Below are positions 1-11,601 of a DNA stretch of 11,601 bases, piece by piece. The stretch is taken from positions 1-11,601 of the forward strand of contig JAGGYF010000008.1 of the NCBI GenBank assembly GCA_021162685.1. Direction: 5' to 3'. The notes below the pieces were generated by a model, which saw nothing but the letters and a program-made list of their open reading frames with translations, was not told the origin of the DNA and ran no database searches. Origin of the DNA: Candidatus Iainarchaeum sp. (GTDB lineage: Archaea > B1Sed10-29 > WALL01). The position numbers were made by a program, and so were the translations under genes. The stretch's first letter is position 1. Each line of letters starts with the position of its first letter.

Positions 1-15
1 AAGATATACAGCTAT

Positions 16-45
16 GCATATCCAAAAGATATATAAAGGATATGC
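16..45 (+). promoter_or_regulatory. Archaeal promoter (TATATAAA at 30-37) flanked by a perfect 8-bp inverted repeat; candidate operator
   Basis: GCATATCC (16-23) and GGATATGC (38-45) are exact reverse complements bracketing AAAAGATATATAAA. The TATA box lies at -30..-23 from the ATG at 60, which fits a leaderless transcript. Confidence 0.7.
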
Positions 46-59
46 TATTATAACATATC

Positions 60-278
60 ATGAAGAAAGTGCTCGTAACCATACCTGAAAATCTACTAAA
101 AGAAATTGACGAACTTGTACGTTCTGGCCATTACTCATCGCGTTCTGAGTTCCTGAGAGAGGGAGCACGCTTTCTCCTGCGCCTCCAATCAGGTGAGATA
201 ACAGAGGGGATTGAGGAGGTAGAGGAACCAAAGCCGATTAAGCAGAACAAGGATATAAACCATTGGAGCTATGGATAA
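60..278 (+). CDS. Ribbon-helix-helix (CopG/MetJ/Arc family) transcriptional regulator
   Basis: N-terminal strand KKVLVTIP followed by helices LLKEIDELVRSG-Y-SRSEFLREG, a typical RHH pattern, then an acidic tail. Confidence 0.88.
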   Translation: MKKVLVTIPENLLKEIDELVRSGHYSSRSEFLREGARFLLRLQSGEITEGIEEVEEPKPIKQNKDINHWSYG

Positions 279-318
279 GCATATAAATGCAAAAAAGGTA
301 AAACTATAAGGTGGTTTT

Positions 319-1416
319 TTGCCGATATTCTCGTTTCATCCATTGAAAGAGAGAAGATTAAAGAAGAAACTTATGTCGCATGAAGAAATGCAGGAGCACA
401 TAAGGAAACATGGTAAGAAGGTTGTTAATGATTTTATAAAAGGATGTAAAACTGCTTTGGATGCTGCGAATGTAAAGAGGGGGGATAGGATAGTTATTAT
501 TACAGACAACAAGAGAAGGGCTATTGCAGAGACATTAGAGGAACTTGCGAAGCACAGGGGGTTAGAGGTAAAAACAATAGTGTCTGGCTCTCCCCAGAAT
601 CCTATACATAAGGACCACGCAGTTATGACTAGTACAGTATCAGCAATTCATAACACACAACCAAAGGTAACGTTCTTTTTTGTTGATAAAGCATCATGGC
701 CACACAGAAAACCCATATATGTAGCTACTGATAAATACGGGTTTACATATACTGCCCCAGGTATAAGGCATGAGGATTTTTATGCAATCCTCTCTGGAGA
801 TGTTGATAAAGTGAGAAGAAAAACAAAGAGTGTCCTTGAGTTTGTCAAAGAGGCACAGAAGAGAGGAGGGAAGGTTGAGCTGCACACAGGTGAGCATTCA
901 GTATTTCATTGTGAGATAACACCAGAGGTTATGCTAACAGCAGACTCAATGGAGCCACCAACTCAGGCGTTTCTTGGTGAGAAGGTTGCTAATCTACCAG
1001 GTGGAGAGGTTGAAACCACATTCCCAAAAAATGTATCAGGCGAGATATTTTTTGATGCTGGTTCTGTATTTGGAGAGGCAGGTGTTATTGAGAAAGGCAT
1101 AACAGTCAGATTTGAGAATGGAAAACTAAAGGAGATGATTCCTCATTCTGAAAATGACAAAAAGCTTGTCAAACGAATGAAATCATTTTTTGATAAATAT
1201 GGGTATGATGTTGTTGAGTTCGCTATTGGCACAAACGAATTTGTTCCCTTGGAGTTAGCAAATACAGAGCTGACAAGAGAGAAGGTTTTAGGTACAATAC
1301 ATGTTGGTGTGGGTAGCGAGGAGGCACATTCTGATCTTGTGGCAAAGGTTAAACACCTAAGGATTGCTGGAAAACACATAATAAAGGATGGGAGATGGGT
1401 ACTTAACCACCTCTAA
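319..1416 (+). CDS. Aminopeptidase T-like metallopeptidase (peptidase family M29)
   Basis: M29 C-terminal motifs NLPGGEV, EFAIGTN, EKVLGTIHVGVG and HSDLV. TTG start is preceded by SD-like AGGTGG (309-314); the start could be later (MSHEE). Confidence 0.8.
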   Translation: MPIFSFHPLKERRLKKKLMSHEEMQEHIRKHGKKVVNDFIKGCKTALDAANVKRGDRIVIITDNKRRAIAETLEELAKHRGLEVKTIVSGSPQNPIHKDHAVMTSTVSAIHNTQPKVTFFFVDKASWPHRKPIYVATDKYGFTYTAPGIRHEDFYAILSGDVDKVRRKTKSVLEFVKEAQKRGGKVELHTGEHSVFHCEITPEVMLTADSMEPPTQAFLGEKVANLPGGEVETTFPKNVSGEIFFDAGSVFGEAGVIEKGITVRFENGKLKEMIPHSENDKKLVKRMKSFFDKYGYDVVEFAIGTNEFVPLELANTELTREKVLGTIHVGVGSEEAHSDLVAKVKHLRIAGKHIIKDGRWVLNHL

Positions 1417-2158
1417 CATATTTCAATATCTCCTCAGGTTTAGTTTCATACCCTCTCTTCTTGAAAAACTTGCATAGATTTCTGATATCCCTTTCAAGAA
1501 ATTCATCTGCATTTGGATGACTAACCAGAACTGCTTGTCCCATATCAATAATATATGGCTGTTCATTCCAATACAATATATTAAACTCTGAGAGATCCCC
1601 ATGCACTAAATCATTTTTGAGCAATGTTTTTACATCTTCAATAATCTTCCAGAATGTCTTTTCTAGGTTTTCAATAGCAGCATCTTTTAGTAACGGGGCA
1701 GCATACTCCCCACCAATGAATTCCATAACAAGGGCGTTCCTAAAGTAGGCATATGGTTTAGGAACATTACATTTTGCTTCATATGCGATTTGTAGATTTT
1801 TAAACTCCTTCTGACACCAAGCAAGAACTATCTGCCTCCTATTATGTTTTACATTCTCAAAACGTCTGTCTCCTTCAAGGTATTTCCACATGGCTTTAAA
1901 GTCAGATGTTTCTACTCTGTATATCTTACATGCTCTTGCTTTGCCCCCTCTTGTTACTGCTCTAAATACATTGGCTTCTTTCCCTTTTGACACACAATAC
2001 TGCAGCCCATCAATATAACCACGCGCAATCAATTTCATGACAGATTCAGCAGTATAGTTGTCAAATACATCCTCCATAATCTTCCTTTGTTCCCTGTCCT
2101 TCTCTCTCTCCTCTTCTTTCCTCACAAACAACCGTTTCTCAAATTCCGATACATCCAT
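1403..2158 (-). CDS. rio1: RIO1-family atypical Ser/Thr kinase/ATPase (ribosome small-subunit maturation)
   Basis: SKGKEANVF P-loop, KIYR, catalytic HGDLSEFNIL, IIDMGQAV, HPNA..FLERD. TATA-like TTTAAAAG on the minus strand at 2188-2181. Confidence 0.95.
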   Translation of the reverse strand: MDVSEFEKRLFVRKEEEREKDREQRKIMEDVFDNYTAESVMKLIARGYIDGLQYCVSKGKEANVFRAVTRGGKARACKIYRVETSDFKAMWKYLEGDRRFENVKHNRRQIVLAWCQKEFKNLQIAYEAKCNVPKPYAYFRNALVMEFIGGEYAAPLLKDAAIENLEKTFWKIIEDVKTLLKNDLVHGDLSEFNILYWNEQPYIIDMGQAVLVSHPNADEFLERDIRNLCKFFKKRGYETKPEEILKYVRGG

Positions 2159-2259
2159 GATTATAAAGAAGAGAGCAACACTTTTAAATGTTTTATAAAA
2201 ACCATAAGAAATATATTGCAGAAAGTTTACAAATTATCCAAGCCCACCCAGGGATTGTT

Positions 2260-2448
2260 ATGGTTAAGGATGCATTTTTCTATTATATATGCAAGAACTG
2301 CGGAAAGCGCTATTTAGGCTACTGTCCAGAGCGCTGTTCAAAATGCGGTTCAACTGATTTTGGCGTTGTTTTAGGGGATTGGGCGTATAGTGGCTCATCA
2401 AGTAAGGGTGGAAAACCACCAATTATCTGGGAGATAGATGAGGGATAG
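2260..2448 (+). CDS. Small zinc-ribbon (rubredoxin-like) protein, 62 aa
   Basis: YICKNCG...CPERCSKCGS gives two CxxC knuckles. ATG 2260 is preferred over 2188 because 2188 lies in the AT-rich divergent promoter region. Confidence 0.65.
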   Translation: MVKDAFFYYICKNCGKRYLGYCPERCSKCGSTDFGVVLGDWAYSGSSSKGGKPPIIWEIDEG

Positions 2449-2851
2449 CCTTTTCTATTATTTCCTTATGGTCAAAGCCCATGTCTGGCAACTCATCAAT
2501 AGTAAACCATCCCACATCTTCTGTTTCGCCAGATGTTTTCAATCCAAGTGTTTTTGGTTCACAAAGAAATGCAATTGAGATAACCCTTCCACGAGGGTCC
2601 CTTCTGATGCTATCAAAAATTCCGAGCAGTTCTTTTACTTCAACATCAATCCCTGTTTCTTCTTTTATCTCTCTGATAACTGCTTCTTCAATACGCTCAT
2701 CCAATCTAATAAATCCACCTGGCAGACACCAAGCTCCTTTGAACGGTTCATACTTTCTCTTTATGAGCAACACTTTTCTTTCATGAATAACTACGCCATC
2801 AACAGCAAGTCCGAACATAACTCCGTCTTTTTCACATCTCATATCGTACAT
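2423..2851 (-). CDS. NUDIX hydrolase (ADP-ribose pyrophosphatase-like)
   Basis: Complete Nudix box GGFIRLDERIEEAVIREIKEETGI, plus LLIKRK.EPFKG.W.LPGG, RDPRG and FDH motifs. Confidence 0.93.
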   Translation of the reverse strand: MYDMRCEKDGVMFGLAVDGVVIHERKVLLIKRKYEPFKGAWCLPGGFIRLDERIEEAVIREIKEETGIDVEVKELLGIFDSIRRDPRGRVISIAFLCEPKTLGLKTSGETEDVGWFTIDELPDMGFDHKEIIEKAIPHLSPR

Positions 2852-2861
2852 GGACTCACAC

Positions 2862-3713
2862 TCATATCAACAGTTTAACAATATTTTTTCTGCCTTTGGG
2901 TATCCTCTTTACTATCCCATCCTCCTCTAACCTGCGAAGCACCTTGCTTAATTTCGGTCCGCTCCAATCCAATTGTTTTTCAATCTCCTTCTGCACCATC
3001 TCTCCCCCGTTCTTTTTTAGGAGCTCTACAACTGCCATCTCATTTTCCCTTAGGAATTTCATTATCGTCTTTGCCTGTTTCCTCTTCTTTATGGTTAATC
3101 CTATACCAGTGCCAACAAGGATACCCACCCCCAATACAATCATAGAGACCCCAAGCAAATCCATTTTTGGTAATGTGTACTCAACAAAAACCTTTTTTTG
3201 ATTTTTCCATAAGAGGACAATGTGTTCCATATCTGTTGTTGCCTCTGCATCTGGGAATACTTGTTTTATATTGTTTAGTTCTACTATCCTGGCATGAGGC
3301 GGCAGTTTAAGGGCGATTGTTATATCGGTATTCTCTGGGCAGTCTATACCAAATGTAAACTTTTCACCATTCTGTGTATGTTCAATGAAACCCAATGCCT
3401 TTCCATCTCCCCTTAAGTGTATAGTTGTTGAATTCTTTACAAGACAAATAAGCTCATCACCTATATTGCAGTTCGGCGCGTCTATTACATCCATACCATA
3501 GGTGTCAAACACTACAACCCCTTGTTCACTGCTCTCAAATCTTATTGTTTCATCTATAACTCCTTTATCATCAATAGATATTGTGATGTACATACTATCC
3601 GTAGCATATACACTAGCGATAAGCAGCATCCATACTAAATATCTAAGGATGCTGCGCAAATGCCTTTTTTGGTAGTGCCCCAACTGCTGCCCCAACTGTT
3701 GATTTGGACACAT
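2862..3713 (-). CDS. Membrane-tethered winged-HTH protein (signal peptide, extracellular domain, TM helix, C-terminal wHTH; COG2512-like)
   Basis: Signal-like LRYLVWMLLIASVYA, TM LLGVSMIVLGVGILVGTGIGLTI followed by KKRK, C-terminal LRENE..VVELL...GG...QKEI......WS..KLSKVLRRLEEDGIVKR...GRKNIV. True start uncertain, possibly TTG at 3659. Confidence 0.82.
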   Translation of the reverse strand: MCPNQQLGQQLGHYQKRHLRSILRYLVWMLLIASVYATDSMYITISIDDKGVIDETIRFESSEQGVVVFDTYGMDVIDAPNCNIGDELICLVKNSTTIHLRGDGKALGFIEHTQNGEKFTFGIDCPENTDITIALKLPPHARIVELNNIKQVFPDAEATTDMEHIVLLWKNQKKVFVEYTLPKMDLLGVSMIVLGVGILVGTGIGLTIKKRKQAKTIMKFLRENEMAVVELLKKNGGEMVQKEIEKQLDWSGPKLSKVLRRLEEDGIVKRIPKGRKNIVKLLI

Positions 3714-3876
3714 TCTTTTCCTCTATCCCTGTGGCTTTTTCATACCTCTTTTCAATAGATGGTTGTTGTTCTTGGCTGGGTGCAGCCACCTCATGGGATA
3801 TAAAAATCAGAGCTATGCCTGCTATAATTAATATAATTCCCACGATGGCTGCAACCCATATCTTCAATTCCATCAC
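3643..3876 (-). CDS. Small single-pass membrane protein, hypothetical
   Basis: Strongly hydrophobic IWVAAIVGIILIIAGIALIFI followed by a polar linker. It fills the gap between two co-oriented genes. Start is GTG 3876 or ATG 3873. Confidence 0.65.
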   Translation of the reverse strand: MMELKIWVAAIVGIILIIAGIALIFISHEVAAPSQEQQPSIEKRYEKATGIEEKNVSKSTVGAAVGALPKKAFAQHP

Positions 3877-3889
3877 CCAATCTTTCTTC

Positions 3890-4927
3890 TCAGAAGCTTA
3901 AAAAACTTTCTAAGATTTTTTCTAGTTCAGATGTCCATCCTATTTCCTCATCAAATGTTTTCTCTGGCTTTATACTCTTGGAGTATCTGACCCCTTCCGC
4001 CTTTGCTGCACTTTGCACTGTTGCTCCTACTATCTGAGGAAGGTTATTAACCCTTATTGTGTGTGATACTCTATCATATGTTGGGTCCTTTGTATAATCT
4101 GCCATTTCTCCTTCTATGTGATAAGCGCGGTAGTACTGCTCTGGCCTCACTGTGTAATAATTAAGTCGTCTGTATGCCCCGCCTGTGATTTCTGCAATCC
4201 TTTGGAATACATCCTCTCCATGCATATATCTCTCTATCCCAGAACATCCGATTGTATAGATTGTTATGCCCTTCTCCTTTGCAATGTATGCCTCTTTTTC
4301 CCAATTGTATCCTTCTGGGTCTCCATTTGGAAAGCTCACATCTCCATTTCCTGATAATCCATGTGGTGGTGCGTCACCTATCAAGAAAATTATTCTCTTC
4401 ACTGGTTTGCTCTCACATCTTATCTCATTATTTGGCGTTGTGATACATTCTCCGTTCCATTGCATTCTGTTTATTGCGACGTGCAGAGCATTAGATACTG
4501 CCTCTGGTCCATCACCACCGCCCCTTGCATCAATCTGCATAATCCACTCCTTTACCTCTTGTATGTCCGATGTAAATTCATGCCTTCTCACTACATACTC
4601 TCTTTCTTCTGGTGGATAATCCCTATACGTAACAACACCTATCCTGAGTATAGGCCTTGGATATCCTCTTTCAATCTTGTCAATCATCTGTACCATCTCA
4701 TATTTTATTGCCTGTATCTCGTCAGCCATGCTCCCGGTGCTATCAACAACAAATACCACATCTATCCTTGGTTGTTTTGGAGGTACAGGAGGTATGGGAT
4801 ACGGTGGTTCTGGAATAAAATTAGGAGAGATGTTGTTGAATTCTCCTAAAACCATATCCATCAACCCACCTGCAAATGCAGATGAGAGTATTGTTGTTGC
4901 CAATACCAATCCTATAAGTTTCCTCAT
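3890..4927 (-). CDS. Secreted von Willebrand factor type A (vWA) domain protein
   Basis: Signal peptide MRKLIGLVLATTILSSAFA, Pro-rich linker, MIDAS-like DVVFVVDSTGSM, YRDY, GGGDGPEA, IFLIGDAPPH. SD GAGGTGAT on the minus strand at 4938-4931. Confidence 0.92.
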   Translation of the reverse strand: MRKLIGLVLATTILSSAFAGGLMDMVLGEFNNISPNFIPEPPYPIPPVPPKQPRIDVVFVVDSTGSMADEIQAIKYEMVQMIDKIERGYPRPILRIGVVTYRDYPPEEREYVVRRHEFTSDIQEVKEWIMQIDARGGGDGPEAVSNALHVAINRMQWNGECITTPNNEIRCESKPVKRIIFLIGDAPPHGLSGNGDVSFPNGDPEGYNWEKEAYIAKEKGITIYTIGCSGIERYMHGEDVFQRIAEITGGAYRRLNYYTVRPEQYYRAYHIEGEMADYTKDPTYDRVSHTIRVNNLPQIVGATVQSAAKAEGVRYSKSIKPEKTFDEEIGWTSELEKILESFLSF

Positions 4928-5097
4928 AGCATCACCTCATCTTTTTTTGTGCAGAGGACATACTCAATTATATGTTGGAAACAGTTTCTCTGGCAACCGC
5001 AAAAACCAAGCAAAATATCCAATTCCTTAAAAAAAGGAAGGAGATGCTTTCCTTTCCTTTACATTAAGTTTTAATACTCCTTTTGAGATATCCCATC

Positions 5098-5745
5098 ATG
5101 AACGTCCCTATAAAAGAGGTAAAGTTTTCAATGGAACATTATCATGGGCATCCAGCGTTGGTCATTCTTTTTGGTGGTAGTTCAAAGAGAGAAATACAGG
5201 ACCTCTTTGCATATGTGCTTGCATCAAAAGACATCATAGAAGCAGTTGTTTTTGATGGTGATGAACCGACAGATTACCCAAGTGCACTAACTTCGCTCTG
5301 CACATTATTCAAGCAAGAAGGGCTCCTAACAAAAGTCATTACACAAGGCAGCAATTCAACCATCATAAAGGACCTAATCTCGCGCAGACTCATTGATTCC
5401 CTCTCCTTAATAATCTATGCTCCCCTTGACAGCATTAGGATATGGGACTGGGTTGTTAACAATCCAGAGGCACAGATTTTTCATATCTACCAGATATTAG
5501 AGTATGCGTCACGTTCACATATTGACATAAAGGTTCTTATTCCTATTATAGATGGAATAAACAACAGGGCAGATGTTATAAGAAGCATAGCTGAAAGCAT
5601 TTCCAAATTTGATCCCACGGTTGTACTAATGGATGGAGAAGGTGAAATAAGCAGAGAAGAGATGCGGAGATTAGCGAAATCAGCCAAGGGCATTGTTCCA
5701 GAGGTTAGGATCAGAACAGCAGAATATGGAGAGGAGGGCGTATGA
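5098..5745 (+). CDS. Degenerate NrdG/PflA-like radical SAM-fold protein lacking CxxxCxxC (predicted inactive)
   Basis: Colinear with the downstream activase: EAVVFDGDEPT vs EAVEFTGGEPT, KVITQGSN vs KVHTNGTN, IIYAP vs DIKAP, PIIDGINN vs PVIPGLND. Only one Cys. ATG 5098 has TTTTAATA at -29..-22. Confidence 0.8.
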   Translation: MNVPIKEVKFSMEHYHGHPALVILFGGSSKREIQDLFAYVLASKDIIEAVVFDGDEPTDYPSALTSLCTLFKQEGLLTKVITQGSNSTIIKDLISRRLIDSLSLIIYAPLDSIRIWDWVVNNPEAQIFHIYQILEYASRSHIDIKVLIPIIDGINNRADVIRSIAESISKFDPTVVLMDGEGEISREEMRRLAKSAKGIVPEVRIRTAEYGEEGV

Positions 5746-5784
5746 ACAGCAAAACTTTAAAATGCTCAATGAGAATTACTCTTT

Positions 5785-6531
5785 ATGTACCTTAAACTTG
5801 CCTCGTTTAATCCAAATCTGCCCAGTGCATTTCCTGGAAAGAAATGTGCAGTTGTATACTTCGGCGAATGTAATTTTAGGTGTCCCTACTGCTTTATCCC
5901 AAAACATTATCTGGAAGGGAAGGGATGCAAATCAGTAAACATAAACCAGGTTTTGGCACTTATATTCCAAACAAAACCAGAGGCAGTTGAGTTCACAGGT
6001 GGAGAACCAACAATGCAGAAGAGACCACTTATAGCAATGGCATCATTTTTGAAATCCCAGGGCATACTTGTTAAGGTTCACACAAATGGAACGAATCCAG
6101 GTGTTGTAGGAGACCTACTAACAAAGAAGATTGTAGACTATCTATGCATAGACATAAAAGCACCATTCAGCGATGAGGCATTGTGGAACAAAGTTACAGG
6201 CATCAATGCAAGGGACTATATAAACAAGGTTAATGAGAGCACAGATATCGCAAAAGATAAAGCAGACTTCTTTGAGGTTGTCTATCCAGTAATTCCAGGA
6301 TTAAATGATAAGGCGGAATACATAAGAAAGGTTTGCAATGAACTGATATTCTGCCATTCATTCGTGGTCAGGGCATTTGAGAACAAGTATGGTACTGTTG
6401 ACCCCGCATTCTCAAAAAAGAAACCTCCTTCTTTTGACACACTTAAGAAACTCGCAAGAACAGCAAGAGACACTCTACTAAATGTAGAAAGTGTGAGAAT
6501 ACAACAAGGACATAAGATAACTGAGATTTAA
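5785..6531 (+). CDS. nrdG: Radical SAM glycyl-radical activating enzyme (anaerobic ribonucleotide reductase activase-like)
   Basis: CNFRCPYC (5869-5892), FTGGEPT, HTNG, DIKAP, PVIPGLND. Own TATA-like TTTAAAA at 5756-5762. The specific substrate cannot be determined from this window. Confidence 0.82.
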   Translation: MYLKLASFNPNLPSAFPGKKCAVVYFGECNFRCPYCFIPKHYLEGKGCKSVNINQVLALIFQTKPEAVEFTGGEPTMQKRPLIAMASFLKSQGILVKVHTNGTNPGVVGDLLTKKIVDYLCIDIKAPFSDEALWNKVTGINARDYINKVNESTDIAKDKADFFEVVYPVIPGLNDKAEYIRKVCNELIFCHSFVVRAFENKYGTVDPAFSKKKPPSFDTLKKLARTARDTLLNVESVRIQQGHKITEI

Positions 6532-7403
6532 TCCAAGAAGTAATCTTCACTACTTTTTATCTTTGCTTCAATTTCAATAAGTTCCTTCTGCTTTTCATTT
6601 ATCAACTCATTCCTCGTTTTTTCATCAATTATCCTCTTGTAAAAATTGTATTCAATCCTCTTTATCATCTCTTTTATCTCCTTTCTCCTCCTCAATAATG
6701 GCTCTCTCTTCTCAAGCCATACCTTATACTCCTTATTCGCAATCTCTTTTGCCTCAGTCCTTGTTAACCCTTTGTCCATGAGTTTCGTTATAATGTCTGT
6801 TGGTAATTCTCCTCTATCATACAGCTGCATACAAAGATACTTTATACCTTTCATCTCTTCCTTCTTTTTTCCGAGCAATCTGTCCAAAAACCCTATGCGT
6901 TTGACCTCTTTTGGTTTTTCTTTCATCTCCTCCTCTGTTGGTTTATATCGCGGGTGCTCCTCTTCTTTGTCCTCAATAATCTCAGCAAATTCATCCAAGT
7001 TTATGGCATACTCCTCTTTCTTCTCCTCCTTCTTTTCAGGAGGTTTCTCTATCTCCTCAGGTTTAACAATATCCTCTCCCTTTGCAATTTCCAGCACTTC
7101 CTCCTTGTTCTCGCCTGAAAGCAATTGCGTTATATCACTAACGTCTGTCTTCTCCTCAGGTCCTATGCTCGGAGCAGCTTCTGGTTCTTTTGTCAATATC
7201 TCTTCCAATGATTTCTCTTCTGGTTCTTTACCAAATTGTACAGTTGCAGGCGTTCCCATTATCTCTTCAACACCAGTTGGCTTTTCTTCCTCTTTCCTCT
7301 CACTTTTTTCCACCCTTTTCTTGCCTATCAGTTTTAGCAAAACGATTAGCCCTATGAATGCTAAGAAGCCATAAAACAATGGGTCAGGTAGGTCAAATGG
7401 CAT
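6528..7403 (-). CDS. Hypothetical N-terminally membrane-anchored protein with Glu/Lys/Pro-rich linker and helical/coiled-coil C-terminus
   Basis: TM LFYGFLAFIGLIVLLKLI followed by GKKR, a long low-complexity acidic region, and a helical C-terminal domain. 291-aa open frame. Confidence 0.8.
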   Translation of the reverse strand: MPFDLPDPLFYGFLAFIGLIVLLKLIGKKRVEKSERKEEEKPTGVEEIMGTPATVQFGKEPEEKSLEEILTKEPEAAPSIGPEEKTDVSDITQLLSGENKEEVLEIAKGEDIVKPEEIEKPPEKKEEKKEEYAINLDEFAEIIEDKEEEHPRYKPTEEEMKEKPKEVKRIGFLDRLLGKKKEEMKGIKYLCMQLYDRGELPTDIITKLMDKGLTRTEAKEIANKEYKVWLEKREPLLRRRKEIKEMIKRIEYNFYKRIIDEKTRNELINEKQKELIEIEAKIKSSEDYFLD

Positions 7404-7436
7404 ATGTTACTATTATACTAACAAGCATAAAAAGAT

Positions 7437-7580
7437 GAGGGGCGACAGCCATGCGAACGTGCGGAACAAGAAAGAGAGGAGGGTGGGAGTTCACATGGCT
7501 GACATCCCCAATGTCGCTTGAGGTTTCGCGAGGTGTTTTTGTTACCAAGAGCAGCGAACTTTTGGGGGTTTTCCCACCCG
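7437..7580 (-). ncRNA. Candidate structured RNA (sRNA, or 3'UTR/terminator element) of unknown family
   Basis: Visibly GC-richer than its flanks. ~20-bp imperfect inverted repeat 7439-7458 / 7489-7508, further pairings 7481-7488 / 7572-7579 and 7523-7529 / 7554-7559. A U-run follows on the minus strand (7433-7429). Confidence 0.5.
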
Positions 7581-7586
7581 TGAGCA

Positions 7587-8030
7587 TTATATGTAGTATA
7601 TCACCCTTTTTCCAGCGCGTTTCTTTTTCAGCAATCCTTCCTTTGCCAATTGGTTCAATCTTGCGCTGGCGGCGTTTTTTCCCTTGTATTTAAACTTCTT
7701 CTGCACCTCCTCTGCACACACTTTTTTCTTTAATTTTACGTATTTCAGGATCTCTTTATCCACATCAGAGAGGAATGCCTCAATTTCTTCTTTTCCTGCA
7801 CTTCCTTCCCTGATACTGTCACGCATCTGTCGTGATATTTCCACAAGCTCTTCAAGTTTTTTGTCAATGCTGCGGAACAGCGCATTTGTGAGTTTGCGCT
7901 CTTCCACGAGCCTGTGGATCATCGCTCCAACGACATATGGATCCTTGAATTTTTCTAGGTCATATTCTACATCTCTTGAAAGGAACGCATATTCATCTGG
8001 TCCGTATTTTTTTGGTATGTGCTCTTGCAT
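7587..8030 (-). CDS. Coiled-coil plus C-terminal winged-HTH protein, putative DNA-binding regulator
   Basis: Heptad-like LVEERKLTNALFRSIDKKLEELVEI, then LSDVDKEILKYV......CAEEVQKKF.YKGKNAASARLNQLAKEGLLKKKRAGKRVIY. ATG 8030 is preferred because 8031-8114 holds promoter elements. Confidence 0.8.
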   Translation of the reverse strand: MQEHIPKKYGPDEYAFLSRDVEYDLEKFKDPYVVGAMIHRLVEERKLTNALFRSIDKKLEELVEISRQMRDSIREGSAGKEEIEAFLSDVDKEILKYVKLKKKVCAEEVQKKFKYKGKNAASARLNQLAKEGLLKKKRAGKRVIYYI

Positions 8031-8047
8031 CACTGTACCCCGTAACC

Positions 8048-8114
8048 ACTTTGTACAAGTCATGATTATATCATGACTATTATTTAAATGTTTCGGTTGT
8101 GCAAAATTGTACAA
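8048..8114. promoter_or_regulatory. Palindromic operator cluster and TATA box in the divergent wHTH/histone intergenic region
   Basis: AGTCATGAT-tat-ATCATGACT (8058-8078), TTGTACAA at 8051-8058 and 8107-8114, TTGTGCAA at 8097-8104, minus-strand TTTAAATA at 8088-8081. Confidence 0.6.
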
Positions 8115-8213
8115 AAATGCCGTTTTTCCCCAATTTTAGGGTATATGCTTAAATACCAGTAGTTTTCTTAATCCAGAATAGGGTTGTTTTTACAACCTAA
8201 CGGAGGTTTTAAA

Positions 8214-8390
8214 ATGGCAGATGTTTTGGTTGTACAAAGTAAGGTACATGAATATGTAAAAAGAAAAGGAATGAACATGGCAGGCGATTTCGCAGCTGCA
8301 CTTAGCAAAGAAGTGGCAACACTTATAGAGAGAGCTGCAAAGAGAGCAAAGGCAAATGGAAGAAAGACAGTAAGACCAGATGACTTGTAA
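8214..8390 (+). CDS. Short non-canonical histone-fold protein (58 aa; DUF1931/Bd0055/face-to-face-like)
   Basis: MADVLVVQSKV N-terminus, long alpha2 helix, AKANGRKTVRPDDL with the histone RKTVxxxD motif and a stop right after. SD GGAGG at 8202-8206, TATA-like TTAAATA at 8149-8155. Confidence 0.9.
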   Translation: MADVLVVQSKVHEYVKRKGMNMAGDFAAALSKEVATLIERAAKRAKANGRKTVRPDDL

Positions 8391-8394
8391 GACA

Positions 8395-8430
8395 GGAAGG
8401 CATTTGCCTTCCATTTCTATTTCTTGTTTT
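8395..8430. terminator. Hairpin plus T-rich tract between the convergent histone and ppsA genes
   Basis: GGAAGGC-ATTT-GCCTTCC (8395-8412) followed by ATTTCTATTTCTTGTTTTT on the + strand. Confidence 0.65.
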
Positions 8431-11400
8431 TATATTTTAAATCCAAAGAGTTCAAAGTGTATCTTCTTCTGCTTTTTTTCTTCTCCTCCCTGCTGTTTCA
8501 ATCTCTTCTCTGCTTCAGCAACAACTCTCTTTGTTTTATAGACAACATCGTGGTTTACAGATATGGAGTCAATACCTATGCTCACCAAAAATTCAGCAAA
8601 CTCTGGATAGTTTGATGGTGCTTGTCCACATAAAGAAACCGTTCTACCTTGTGCATGCGCGCCATCAACAATCATTTTCACTGCTTTTTTCACTGCCTCA
8701 TTCCTTTCATCAAATAGGCCCATCCTACCCAAACGTTCCGAGTCTCTATCAACACCCAAAACCAATTGGGTTAAGTCATTTGTCCCTATGGAAAATCCAT
8801 CACAATGTTTTGCGAATTCCTCTGCTAAAAACGCTGTTGATGGTACTTCTGCCATAAACCATAGTTTGAAGTCTTCACTTCTTTCAAGCCCCTCTTCTTT
8901 CATAATTGCCTCAACCTTTTCAGCTTCATCAATCGTTCTGATAAATGGCAACATAATCCACAGATTCTTCAGATTCATCTCTTCCCTTACCTTCTTCACC
9001 GCTTTCAATTCTAATTTAAATGCCTCCTTATAGTCCTCATGATAATACCTTGAACAGCCTCTCCATCCTATCATTGGATTGTCCTCAATAGGCTCAAATT
9101 CCTCTCCTCCGATAAGTTTTCTATATTCATTTGTTTTGAAATCTGAGAGCCTTAATACAACAGGTCTCGGAGCAAAAGCCCTTGCCACCTTTGCAACACC
9201 CTCAGCAAGCTTATCTATGAATACTTGTTGCCTCCCCTCTTTGATAAGTTTCAAGGGATGCTCCTTTATGTATGTCGCTATAATAAACTCCTCCCTCATC
9301 AGCCCAACACCATCAACAGGGAGTTTTGCGTATTCCTCAGCCTTTTCAGGGACTCCAAGATTAAGATAAACCTTTGTTTTTGTTTCAGGTACAGGACCAA
9401 CTTCCTCTTTTACCTCTTCTATCTCCTTCTTTCCTCTGTATACAATACCCTTTGTGGCATCCACTGTTATCACATCACCATCATTAACAATCTGTGTTAT
9501 CTTTTCTGTGCCAACAACACATGGAACACCAAGCTCCCTTGATACAATTGCAGCATGGCAATTTGCAACAAGTACGGGAGTGAGTTGCTCTGTAAGAACA
9601 ATATAGTTATGGTTGTCCCTAACTTCAATGTTATATACCTCCTGTATTCCCAGTTCCGAGTCATACGCTACCCTCTTCATCCTCAAGTCTGAATCTATTA
9701 TCTTATTAAGCTCCGTCTTTTCCTTTTCTGGTGCCATAGGAATGACTTTATTCCGGATTTTCTCAGAATCTATAAGCAAGTTTTTTTGAACATATGGTTT
9801 TATCTTCCCCTTCCAATTTACATCATCAATTATATCTTCCAGCACTTGCTTTGCTGCAAAATATTTAGTCCCTTGGTGTTTTGTCCTTACATCAGCTTTA
9901 ATTCTTTTTGTGTATTTGAGTATCTTGTCAATGCCCTCTACTATCTGTATGTTCGTGCAGTTCTCCCTGTTTCTATACAAGGTTGGTTGTATACCAAGTC
10001 TTAAACAACTCAATACTATTGCCTTTGTTAGGTTAGAATCTCCGCTATAGATGTGTAGCCTGCAGCCATGGCCATGGTGGAAACTTCCATCACCATCAGC
10101 AACACCTGCCAAGAACATACATAGGCTTTCCTCATCAGTTGTCAGTACCCATGATTCCAGCTGCTCGTACATCGAGTTCAGCATAAGGGCGGGCTGTTTT
10201 TGGGCGCAGTAAAGGCGTGTTGCATTGCTGGTGAAAGTGTATCCTCTTATTGTTGATGTGTAGGAGTGATCTGTGGAAGTTAAGGGACTATCAAACACTT
10301 CATTGAAATACGTATTCACACAATCTATGAACTCTTTTTTATCTGGGCAGTCTTTTTGTATGAATGACACCTGCCCTTTTGTTCCTCTCAGGCTGATGTT
10401 CCCATCTGTGAATACTGCACCCATAAGATATGCTAGTTTTCTATTTTTCTCGCTGCTCTCAGATAATGGTGGGATATAATCTATAGTACAGAGTGCTTGG
10501 GCATCGTCGAGTATATGAGATATTTCTTTTTTTATCAGTCTTCTGTTTTCAAGGATGATCATTCTGTGGTCTGGGGTAAGTTCAAGTGTATTGCCTCTGG
10601 CCTTTCCTGTTTGAGACAAGCGTACACGTATGACAGGGGCCTTCCTCTTCATTGCAGCATCAATCTTTTTCCATTCAGTTTTCATGGTTTTTTGATTTAC
10701 AGAGAGAGTGTACAATCGTTCCCCAGCCTCCATCCTCTCATAAACTTCTGCGAGTGGCATTATCCCTCTGTTTGTAATTATCTGCGTTTTTCCTGTGAAA
10801 CACGTCAAACCCCCCTCATCAGTAACAATAGCTGCAGCCTTCCTCATTGCAGGAACCATATCTGGATTTGTCATCTTCGTTGTAAGTATATCGCCTTGCT
10901 CTACTTTATCAAGTTCATCTATACTATGAACAACCTTAACTGTACCTGTTGCAACACCAGGAGATGCAGGCATACCTTTTGCTATAACCTCACCAGTTAC
11001 CTCTTCTGTTACCTCTTTTTTCATGCTTAAGGTGGTGATAGCCCTTGACTGTACAATATATAATCTCCCTTCTTCTAATGCCCACTCAATATCCTGTGGC
11101 TTTCCATAGTGCTCCTCAATCCTCTTCCCTATGCCAGCTAACTCAATAATCTTCTCATCACTTAGCTTCTGATTTCTTCCTGTTTTCTCATCAAGTTCTA
11201 TGACAGTTGTCCCTAATGCCTTTTCATTTCTAACAATCTTGAAATCCTGCTTTCTAATACTCTTTTTTAATATCTTCATAGTCTCCTTATCCACAACATA
11301 GGTATCAGGATTTACTGAACCAGAAACAACAGCTTCTCCCAACCCATAAGCTGCCTCAATAATTATCTTTGTTGTATCCCCAGTTGGTTCTGCAGTAAAC

Positions 11401-11601
11401 ATAACACCAGCAACTTCAGATTTTACCATCTGTTGAACAACAACAGCAATTCCTACCTTTGAGTGGTCAAAACCTTGCTGCACTCTGTAAAAGATTGCCC
11501 TTGGTGTATACAGTGATGCCCAGCATTTTCTAACTGCTTTTATCACTTCGTTTTCTCCCTGCACATCCAAAAATGTTGCTTGCTGTCCTGCAAATGATGC
11601 T
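8430..11601 (-). CDS. ppsA: Phosphoenolpyruvate synthase (pyruvate, water dikinase), 5'-truncated by the window edge, intein-containing
   Basis: The frame stays open to the edge (ASFAGQQATFLDV). Motifs VVVQQMV, GLGEAVVSG, PQDIEWA, QSRAITT, TDEGGLT|CHAAIVSRELG, RLSDFKTNEY, NPMIGWRG, FSIGTNDLTQ, CGQAPS. Confidence 0.98.
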   Translation of the reverse strand, partial: ASFAGQQATFLDVQGENEVIKAVRKCWASLYTPRAIFYRVQQGFDHSKVGIAVVVQQMVKSEVAGVMFTAEPTGDTTKIIIEAAYGLGEAVVSGSVNPDTYVVDKETMKILKKSIRKQDFKIVRNEKALGTTVIELDEKTGRNQKLSDEKIIELAGIGKRIEEHYGKPQDIEWALEEGRLYIVQSRAITTLSMKKEVTEEVTGEVIAKGMPASPGVATGTVKVVHSIDELDKVEQGDILTTKMTNPDMVPAMRKAAAIVTDEGGLTCFTGKTQIITNRGIMPLAEVYERMEAGERLYTLSVNQKTMKTEWKKIDAAMKRKAPVIRVRLSQTGKARGNTLELTPDHRMIILENRRLIKKEISHILDDAQALCTIDYIPPLSESSEKNRKLAYLMGAVFTDGNISLRGTKGQVSFIQKDCPDKKEFIDCVNTYFNEVFDSPLTSTDHSYTSTIRGYTFTSNATRLYCAQKQPALMLNSMYEQLESWVLTTDEESLCMFLAGVADGDGSFHHGHGCRLHIYSGDSNLTKAIVLSCLRLGIQPTLYRNRENCTNIQIVEGIDKILKYTKRIKADVRTKHQGTKYFAAKQVLEDIIDDVNWKGKIKPYVQKNLLIDSEKIRNKVIPMAPEKEKTELNKIIDSDLRMKRVAYDSELGIQEVYNIEVRDNHNYIVLTEQLTPVLVANCHAAIVSRELGVPCVVGTEKITQIVNDGDVITVDATKGIVYRGKKEIEEVKEEVGPVPETKTKVYLNLGVPEKAEEYAKLPVDGVGLMREEFIIATYIKEHPLKLIKEGRQQVFIDKLAEGVAKVARAFAPRPVVLRLSDFKTNEYRKLIGGEEFEPIEDNPMIGWRGCSRYYHEDYKEAFKLELKAVKKVREEMNLKNLWIMLPFIRTIDEAEKVEAIMKEEGLERSEDFKLWFMAEVPSTAFLAEEFAKHCDGFSIGTNDLTQLVLGVDRDSERLGRMGLFDERNEAVKKAVKMIVDGAHAQGRTVSLCGQAPSNYPEFAEFLVSIGIDSISVNHDVVYKTKRVVAEAEKRLKQQGGEEKKQKKIHFELFGFKI
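9561..10802 (-). mobile_element. Intein (414 aa) with LAGLIDADG/DOD homing endonuclease in ppsA
   Basis: Block A CFTGKTQI, block B LTPDH, blocks C and E YLMGAVFTDG and FLAGVADGDG, block F VYNIEVRDNHNY, C-terminus VLVAN|C. Removing it restores GGLTCHAAIVSRELG. Confidence 0.96.

Follow-up and report, generated by a model that had tools for sequence, protein, structure and literature searches.

Can a radical S-adenosylmethionine (SAM) protein that has lost its iron-sulfur cluster motif still be a maintained gene? This question is raised by a locus of the archaeon Candidatus Iainarchaeum sp. (assembly GCA_021162685.1), which was analysed within a stretch of 11,601 nucleotides (nt) of contig JAGGYF010000008.1 (positions 1 to 11,601, forward strand), hereafter the window. 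Two neighbouring open reading frames (ORFs) lie there on the same strand with 39 nt between them: ORF A (5098..5745, forward strand, ATG at 5098), encoding a NrdG2-like radical SAM derivative of 215 amino acids (aa) without the cluster motif, and ORF B (5785..6531, forward strand), encoding an intact orphan NrdG2-like radical SAM protein of 248 aa with a CNFRCPYC motif (nt 5869-5892). The analysis presented here indicates that ORF A is probably a real gene, whose product would be a structurally kept and catalytically dead descendant of the orphan NrdG2-like protein, and that this ORF is best classed as a candidate pseudoenzyme of the NrdG2-like group.

Homology and predicted fold of ORF A

An earlier interpretation made from the letters of the DNA only (the sequence-only reading) had aligned the two ORFs by eye, and their homology is borne out by BLASTP, with 29% identity over 143 aa (E 2e-20); the C-terminal correspondence of SREEMRRLAKSAK in ORF A with SFDTLKKLARTAR in ORF B is likewise as had been claimed. 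Judged by these comparisons, ORF A and ORF B are paralogues. Against the Pfam family Radical_SAM (PF04055), ORF A scores 15.9 bits, under the gathering cut-off of 29.5, and ORF B 51.2 bits; ORF B in addition scores 31.9 bits on Fer4_12. The top-scoring family for both ORFs is TIGR02495 (NrdG2, NCBIfam), with 46.7 bits (E 2.3e-12) for ORF A and 108.8 bits for ORF B, both of which are under its curated cut-off of 131.15 bits. The search of ORF A against Pfam and NCBIfam gave no match to families other than radical SAM activases.

The AF2 model of ORF A, built with 69 aligned sequences, reaches a predicted local distance difference test (pLDDT) score of 97.2 and a predicted template modelling (pTM) score of 0.92. 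A radical SAM fold, which the sequence-only reading had implied, was recovered by Foldseek: the top matches of the model in the Protein Data Bank (PDB) are structures of the pyruvate formate-lyase activating enzyme PFL-AE (3c8f, 8fo0 and 3cb8), with E-values of 2.4e-9 to 3.1e-9 and a query-based TM-score (TMq) of 0.76-0.77. In total, 123 PDB chains match the model at E <= 0.001; among the matches listed, all are radical SAM enzymes, with PFL-AE coming first. Among proteins of solved structure, PFL-AE (PflA; PDB 3C8F, 3CB8 and 8FO0) is likewise the closest in sequence to the family profile (E 4.6e-24), and it resembles ORF A in its comparable size and its partial triose-phosphate isomerase (TIM) barrel, with an identity to the model of 12-13%. 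As predicted, ORF A keeps a partial (beta/alpha)6 TIM barrel, and its derivation from a glycyl-radical-activase-like radical SAM protein is supported.

Loss of the active site

Reductive cleavage of SAM needs a [4Fe-4S] cluster. ORF A contains a single Cys (C68), and a CX3CX2C motif, sought in the six frames of positions 4800-5800, was found in none of them, so the motif of ORF A is not concealed by a frameshift. The sequence-only reading had described the cluster segment as missing through a clean in-frame gap, and the MAFFT alignment agrees: the 19-aa deletion site (5176..5187; this and the following sites are all on the forward strand) corresponds to codons G27-S28-S29-K30, with S28 replacing the first Cys, and the gap follows G26-G27-S28-S29 of ORF A, opposite residues F31-K49 of ORF B (FRCPYCFIPKHYLEGKGCK). 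Drift of the SAM-contacting motifs had also been claimed, and the alignment contains every one of these changes. GGEP has degenerated to GDEP (G55D; 5257..5268, aligned with G77-G78-E79 of PFL-AE), TNG has become TQG (N83Q; 5341..5349, aligned with T105-N106-G107), and DIK, the DxK pair of the family, has become IIY (D105I and K107Y; 5410..5418, aligned with D129 and K131). All 68 aligned relatives (100%) have the second Gly of GGE, where ORF A reads G54-D55-E56. Absent from the earlier account were a second in-frame deletion of ~13 aa, placed by the alignment between E183 and I184 after the beta-6 strand (5644..5649), and the substitution E145K. Altogether, 8 of the 14 near-invariant positions of the family are lost in ORF A (all three Cys are gone, and D55, Q83, I105, Y107 and K145 stand at the other five); ORF B keeps 14 of 14.

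Just ahead of the 19-aa gap, and again as had been noted, ORF A has an EHYHGH stretch (residues 13-18, 5134..5151) in place of the N-terminal D-[YF]-P-G-K loop of the family. In the alignment, the D of this loop (79% in the family) is replaced by H14 and its G (78%) is kept as G17, and the P and K of the ORF B sequence FPGK lie opposite H16 and H18. The His stretch is confined to ORF A, and the other cluster-less lineages of the alignment are without it.

The accessible part of the published description of PFL-AE gives this enzyme C29/C33/C36, G77-G78-E79, T105-N106 and D129/K131; ORF A differs from it by the missing Cys loop and by having D, Q, I and Y at the positions of G78, N106, D129 and K131. 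According to PMC10267522, Gly77-Gly78 is a cis-peptide facing the cluster, and Asp129 ligates the monovalent cation of the active site, a cation that binds the SAM carboxylate too. The view that ORF A would be unable to bind a [4Fe-4S] cluster, and that its ligands for SAM and the cation would be lost too, is supported by these comparisons. Without cluster and SAM ligands, ORF A should therefore not cleave SAM, and its catalytic death is as certain as a conclusion from sequence can be. Among the superfamily tests applied, the one feature of radical SAM enzymes that ORF A shows is the fold, as seen in the predicted model.

Artefact, decaying copy or maintained gene

The genome is a draft of 1.11 Mb in 45 contigs, rated 98% complete, and in a draft the gap might be an artefact of assembly or sequencing, or conceal a frameshift, in which case the locus would in truth encode an intact radical SAM enzyme. 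Public contigs were mapped on positions 4950-6600, parts of which are uncovered. One contig (run X1) spans 4950-5265 with 0 differences from the window, and a contig of another study (run X6) spans 5089-5239 with 1 difference (C5203A, changing L36 to I, at depth 2.1). The contigs that cover the gap are shallow in depth, but both bridge the gap site, so that two studies agree on it; the cluster motif is in no frame of the region, and five other near-invariant substitutions together with a second deletion cannot arise from one error. An artefact is therefore close to refuted. Within ORF B, a contig of a third study (run X5) covers 151 nt with 4 differences, 4 of 4 at third codon positions, as expected under purifying selection.

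The more substantial alternative, which we consider rather unlikely, is that ORF A is a decaying tandem duplicate, a young unprocessed pseudogene whose frame is still open. It was weighed with column bins of conservation computed on 68 other family members, in which retention was compared bin by bin. In the columns conserved at 90% or more, ORF A keeps 6 of 14 residues, where the other 68 members average 98% with a minimum of 86%. Its retention is 17/26 in the 70-90% bin, 14/37 in the 50-70% bin and 28/69 in the 30-50% bin, for family means of 74%, 58% and 37%, and in the 70-90% bin it even exceeds that of ORF B (11/26). A uniform rate of decay across bins is rejected (likelihood-ratio test, p 0.0045), the retention being 0.44 in the invariant bin versus 0.87 elsewhere; in other words, change is concentrated in the catalytic columns; outside these, ORF A follows the consensus as closely as intact members do, with retention at 87% of the family norm. 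This pattern is unlike uniform neutral decay and resembles what is expected when constraint has been lifted from catalysis but not from the fold.

Other properties of the gene also speak against decay. The claim that the upstream ORF is free of stops and frameshifts stands, with 0 stops in its 215 codons against 6-19 in the five other frames of this 40% GC genome; when neutral drift was simulated with substitutions only, 1.5-3.5% of runs retained an open frame at 70% identity, and 0.1-0.3% did so at 50%. Both deletions preserve the frame. D105I and K107Y need two base changes each, which implies that time has elapsed since catalysis was lost. Codon usage, at 0.289 bits per codon, is inside the range of real genes (21st percentile among 209 long genes), with all other frames negative. 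The TATA-like box attributed to ORF A is present as well: TTTAATA (5070..5076, forward strand) starts at -28 of ATG 5098 in a leaderless-type geometry, and ORF B has TTTAAAA (5756..5762, forward strand) starting at -29 of ATG 5785, each being a consensus match only. Upstream of 524 long ORFs of the genome, the pattern TTTAWWW peaks in the -30..-26 bin, with 58 hits versus 0-21 in any other 5-nt bin, so that the box of ORF A falls in the genome-typical bin; the pattern occurs at -33..-24 in 14% of the long ORFs. By its open frame, codon usage, non-uniform retention and promoter-like box, ORF A thus looks like a maintained gene rather than a decaying duplicate, as the sequence-only reading had argued, and we infer that it is maintained by selection.

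Several observations weigh against this reading, and most of them are what decay would produce. ORF A is a singleton: a search for its orthologues in 5.8 billion clusters returned ORF A as the sole hit among 218 candidates, and of 178 matches at E <= 0.001 among 1.84 billion representatives the sole one at E <= 1e-30 was ORF A itself, the best non-self match being an intact protein with 37% identity. Its end branch is long, at 1.71-1.73 versus medians of 0.58 and 0.40 in two trees. It carries two deletions and 8 altered positions out of 14 near-invariant ones, and its only variant seen (C5203A, L36I, in one contig at depth 2.1) is non-synonymous. Losses of the cluster in the family appear mostly sporadic, 5 of 7 cluster-less lineages being single sequences on long branches. 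The sequence-only reading had proposed a search for the same gap and adjacency in other genomes, and it came out negative: of 111 loci that gave a hit to the family, the window alone pairs a cluster-less copy with an intact one in tandem. Moreover, the high pLDDT of the ORF A model leans on the intact relatives in its alignment. With respect to the nearest relatives, ORF A has 33-38% amino-acid identity, with saturated synonymous sites; the control, ORF B, has nearest relatives with 50% and 44% identity. Since even the closest relative of ORF B is at 50%, the lineage is poorly sampled, and the singleton status of ORF A weighs less.

A new function provides a further alternative, which we judge improbable: ORF A could be a neofunctionalised enzyme or metal-binding protein using another cofactor, for example at a site formed by H14, H16 and H18. 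The N-terminal loop, which adjoins the place once occupied by the cluster, does have three His instead of D, P and K, and the barrel is intact in the prediction. However, no other cluster-less lineage shares the His stretch, ORF A matches no Pfam or NCBIfam family but those of radical SAM activases, and two active-site loops have been deleted rather than remodelled. A His metal site in ORF A is therefore best treated as pure conjecture. The reading that we retain as the most probable is that of a real gene for a structurally kept and catalytically dead NrdG2-like protein.

Relatives, neighbourhood and phylogeny

In the relatives, the orphan NrdG2-like gene is single-copy and intact, encodes a protein of ~250 aa and lies at a matching place, the matches between neighbours in the window and in the relatives having been read by eye. 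As in the window, a NUDIX gene and a gene for a winged helix-turn-helix (wHTH) membrane protein are located upstream of the radical SAM gene in genome G001 (locus L013), and in genome G009 (L015) the radical SAM gene is followed by a gene for a charged protein and then by one for the KFKDPYVVGAMIHRLVEER protein. At four loci (L024, L025, L027 and L028) a RIO kinase gene adjoins the radical SAM gene, again as in the window. Since the relatives are single-copy, the tandem is specific to this lineage.

As a broader observation, the intact orphan gene is conserved in related small archaeal genomes (L012-L028), often by a RIO kinase gene or by an ORF read by eye as alanyl-tRNA-synthetase-like; no glycyl-radical enzyme lies alongside it.

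Trees of 42 and 52 family members place ORF A and ORF B inside one order-level orphan clade (SH-aLRT 97). Within it, ORF B groups with the copies of its own taxonomic family (SH-aLRT 99), and the long end branch of ORF A has no resolved placement. The AU test does not reject ORF A and ORF B as sisters (p 0.17), and a weak link of ORF A with the copies of G001 and P0004 in the 42-member tree (SH-aLRT 80) is gone in the 52-member tree; from these two results, a recent tandem duplication and an older paralogue are indistinguishable.

ORF B and the other activases of the genome

The genome carries three NrdD-like genes (L001-L003; C22:5194-7002, C15:35828-37516 and C38:79729-81138), none of them in the window, and each is adjoined by its own intact NrdG2-type activase. 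These NrdD-linked activases score 222.3, 212 and 169.6 bits on TIGR02495 (cut-off 131.15) and are true members of that family. The ORF A/ORF B pair is consequently a fourth, orphan locus: no glycyl-radical enzyme is found beside ORF B, and a search for PF01228 (Gly_radical) across the genome gave no match. Orphan copies of the same order score 99-118 bits on TIGR02495, all below the cut-off. ORF A and ORF B resemble the NrdG2 activases (TIGR02495) in having them as their top-scoring family, and differ from them in staying below the cut-off and in not being beside a NrdD gene. The description of ORF B as an intact glycyl-radical activase accordingly stands in part: the motif is intact (CNFRCPYC, with all 14 near-invariant columns kept), but the activase label is an overstatement at 108.8 bits and with no NrdD gene adjoining. 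Regarding the NrdD-like genes themselves, the match on C22 holds one in-frame TAG, and the copy on C38 is divergent, with 223 bits versus ~650 for the other two.

Other cluster-less members of the family

A census of cluster-less proteins covered 150 listed representatives out of the 178 found at E <= 0.001. Thirty-five of the 150, one being ORF A, are without a contiguous CX3CX2C motif. Five are full-length proteins with the family N-terminus (P0020, P0065, P0071, P0072 and P0125), and the remaining 29 either start within or downstream of the motif region or carry N-termini of a different kind. Motif-less forms of 176-199 aa were considered as an N-truncated family and rejected as such: 6 of the 8 that were looked up are singletons and the other 2 share their clusters with full-length proteins (253 and 244 aa), so these short forms are treated as probable truncated gene calls.

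A search with P0065 and a scan of metagenomes revealed a conserved cluster-less subfamily consisting of P0158, P0159, L033 and L034. Its members are full-length, share S, T and G in place of the three Cys and GSEP for GGEP, and group in a single clade (SH-aLRT 100) whose branches are of normal length. On their metagenome contigs the genes occupy 4001-4759 (L033) and 4001-4699 (L034), in a neighbourhood made up of a GlmS-like ORF (by eye), an HTH regulator, a small membrane protein, the gene and a malic-enzyme-like ORF (by eye). The L033/L034-type gene is single-copy and the positional counterpart of the intact gene of L035. Comparison of L033 with L034 gives a dN of 0.125 and a dS of 1.61, which is near saturation, and hence a dN/dS of 0.078, showing that a cluster-less NrdG2-like protein can be strongly selected. 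L034 also lacks ~20 aa around its YALQQF strand. The subfamily resembles ORF A in being cluster-less and full-length, in the changed second Gly of GGE and in its small archaeal-type contigs; it differs in that the loss is independent, the Cys are substituted instead of deleted, the DxK pair is kept and no intact paralogue lies in tandem. In the 52-row tree, 10 rows are cluster-less and account for at least 7 losses.

Among the single sequences, P0065, an independent singleton, and ORF A are both without the same ~13-aa segment after the beta-6 YVLQQF strand, a shared loss that, from the alignment, may be due to convergence or chance. A scan of a genome collection with P0065 gave two matches, weak and partial. 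The cluster of the ESM Atlas nearest to ORF A (score 0.94) is archaeal and comprises 59 proteins of ~195 aa with no common Pfam family; it may represent another motif-less relative.

Other features of the window

On the reverse strand, positions 8430-11600 hold a PEP synthase / pyruvate phosphate dikinase-type gene, a 1046-aa ORF split by an intein; the latter, with a LAGLIDADG endonuclease domain, covers approximately residues 256-660 and interrupts the mobile PEP-utilizers domain (Pfam). Four ORFs gave no Pfam match at E <= 0.001: 319-1416, 2188-2448 and 8184-8390 on the forward strand and 6528-7403 on the reverse strand. The last of these encodes a very E/K-rich protein of 291 aa; G009 has it too, downstream of its orphan gene (L015).

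Possible role of ORF A and implications for the family

The origin and action of ORF A can be pictured as follows. The single intact gene of the relatives would have given rise to two tandem copies in this lineage, one of which, ORF A, would have lost its [4Fe-4S] loop through the 19-aa in-frame deletion, a second active-site loop, the second Gly of GGE, the Asn of TNG and the DxK pair, and would have kept the core of the partial TIM barrel. Such a protein would act as a non-catalytic binder. Activases, as known from work on PFL-AE, dock the glycine loop of their substrate at the open side of the barrel. The likeliest target of ORF A would be the protein or partner on which ORF B works, or ORF B itself, and ORF A would modulate or assist its intact paralogue. 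A complex prediction for ORF B with ORF A returned a score of 0.02 and a mark of 0.32, which is evidence neither way, and no support was found for the specific roles listed by the sequence-only reading (scaffold, heterodimer, decoy, oxygen shield).

Pseudoenzyme paralogues are of a known kind. In the accessible parts of the respective sources, GMPPA/GMPPB and DRM3/DRM2 are cases of a duplicated enzyme whose inactive copy serves the active one. Dph1-Dph2, SAM-radical enzymes, reportedly follow a similar inactive-paralogue logic. As far as could be seen, none has been described in the NrdG2-like family: a literature search, in which subscription journals are thinly covered, found no description of non-catalytic or cluster-less paralogues of radical SAM activases, and the accessible part of a 2026 review on glycyl radical enzymes describes no cluster-less activase paralogue. 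ORF A would work like no described activase.

Whether the phenomenon extends beyond this locus is more doubtful. It is conceivable, and we advance it with little confidence, that cluster-less NrdG2-like proteins are a recurring, selected non-catalytic class in small DPANN-type archaea, with at least 7 losses, of which at least 2 were kept (the L033/L034/P0158/P0159 subfamily and ORF A), and that they bind or regulate the target of the orphan activase. In that case ORF A would be the first such protein to be met directly beside its intact partner. The conserved cluster-less subfamily, which lies outside the window, is a better-supported novelty than the singleton ORF A, and with its dN/dS of 0.08 it shows that a non-catalytic role can be selected. 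The cluster motif defines radical SAM enzymes, and consequently annotation pipelines drop or mislabel homologues without it. The analysis also draws attention to an orphan NrdG2-like gene that is conserved among small archaeal genomes, every NrdD here having its own activase. If the reading of ORF A proposed above is true, a structurally kept, cluster-less paralogue would give the activase family a non-catalytic role.

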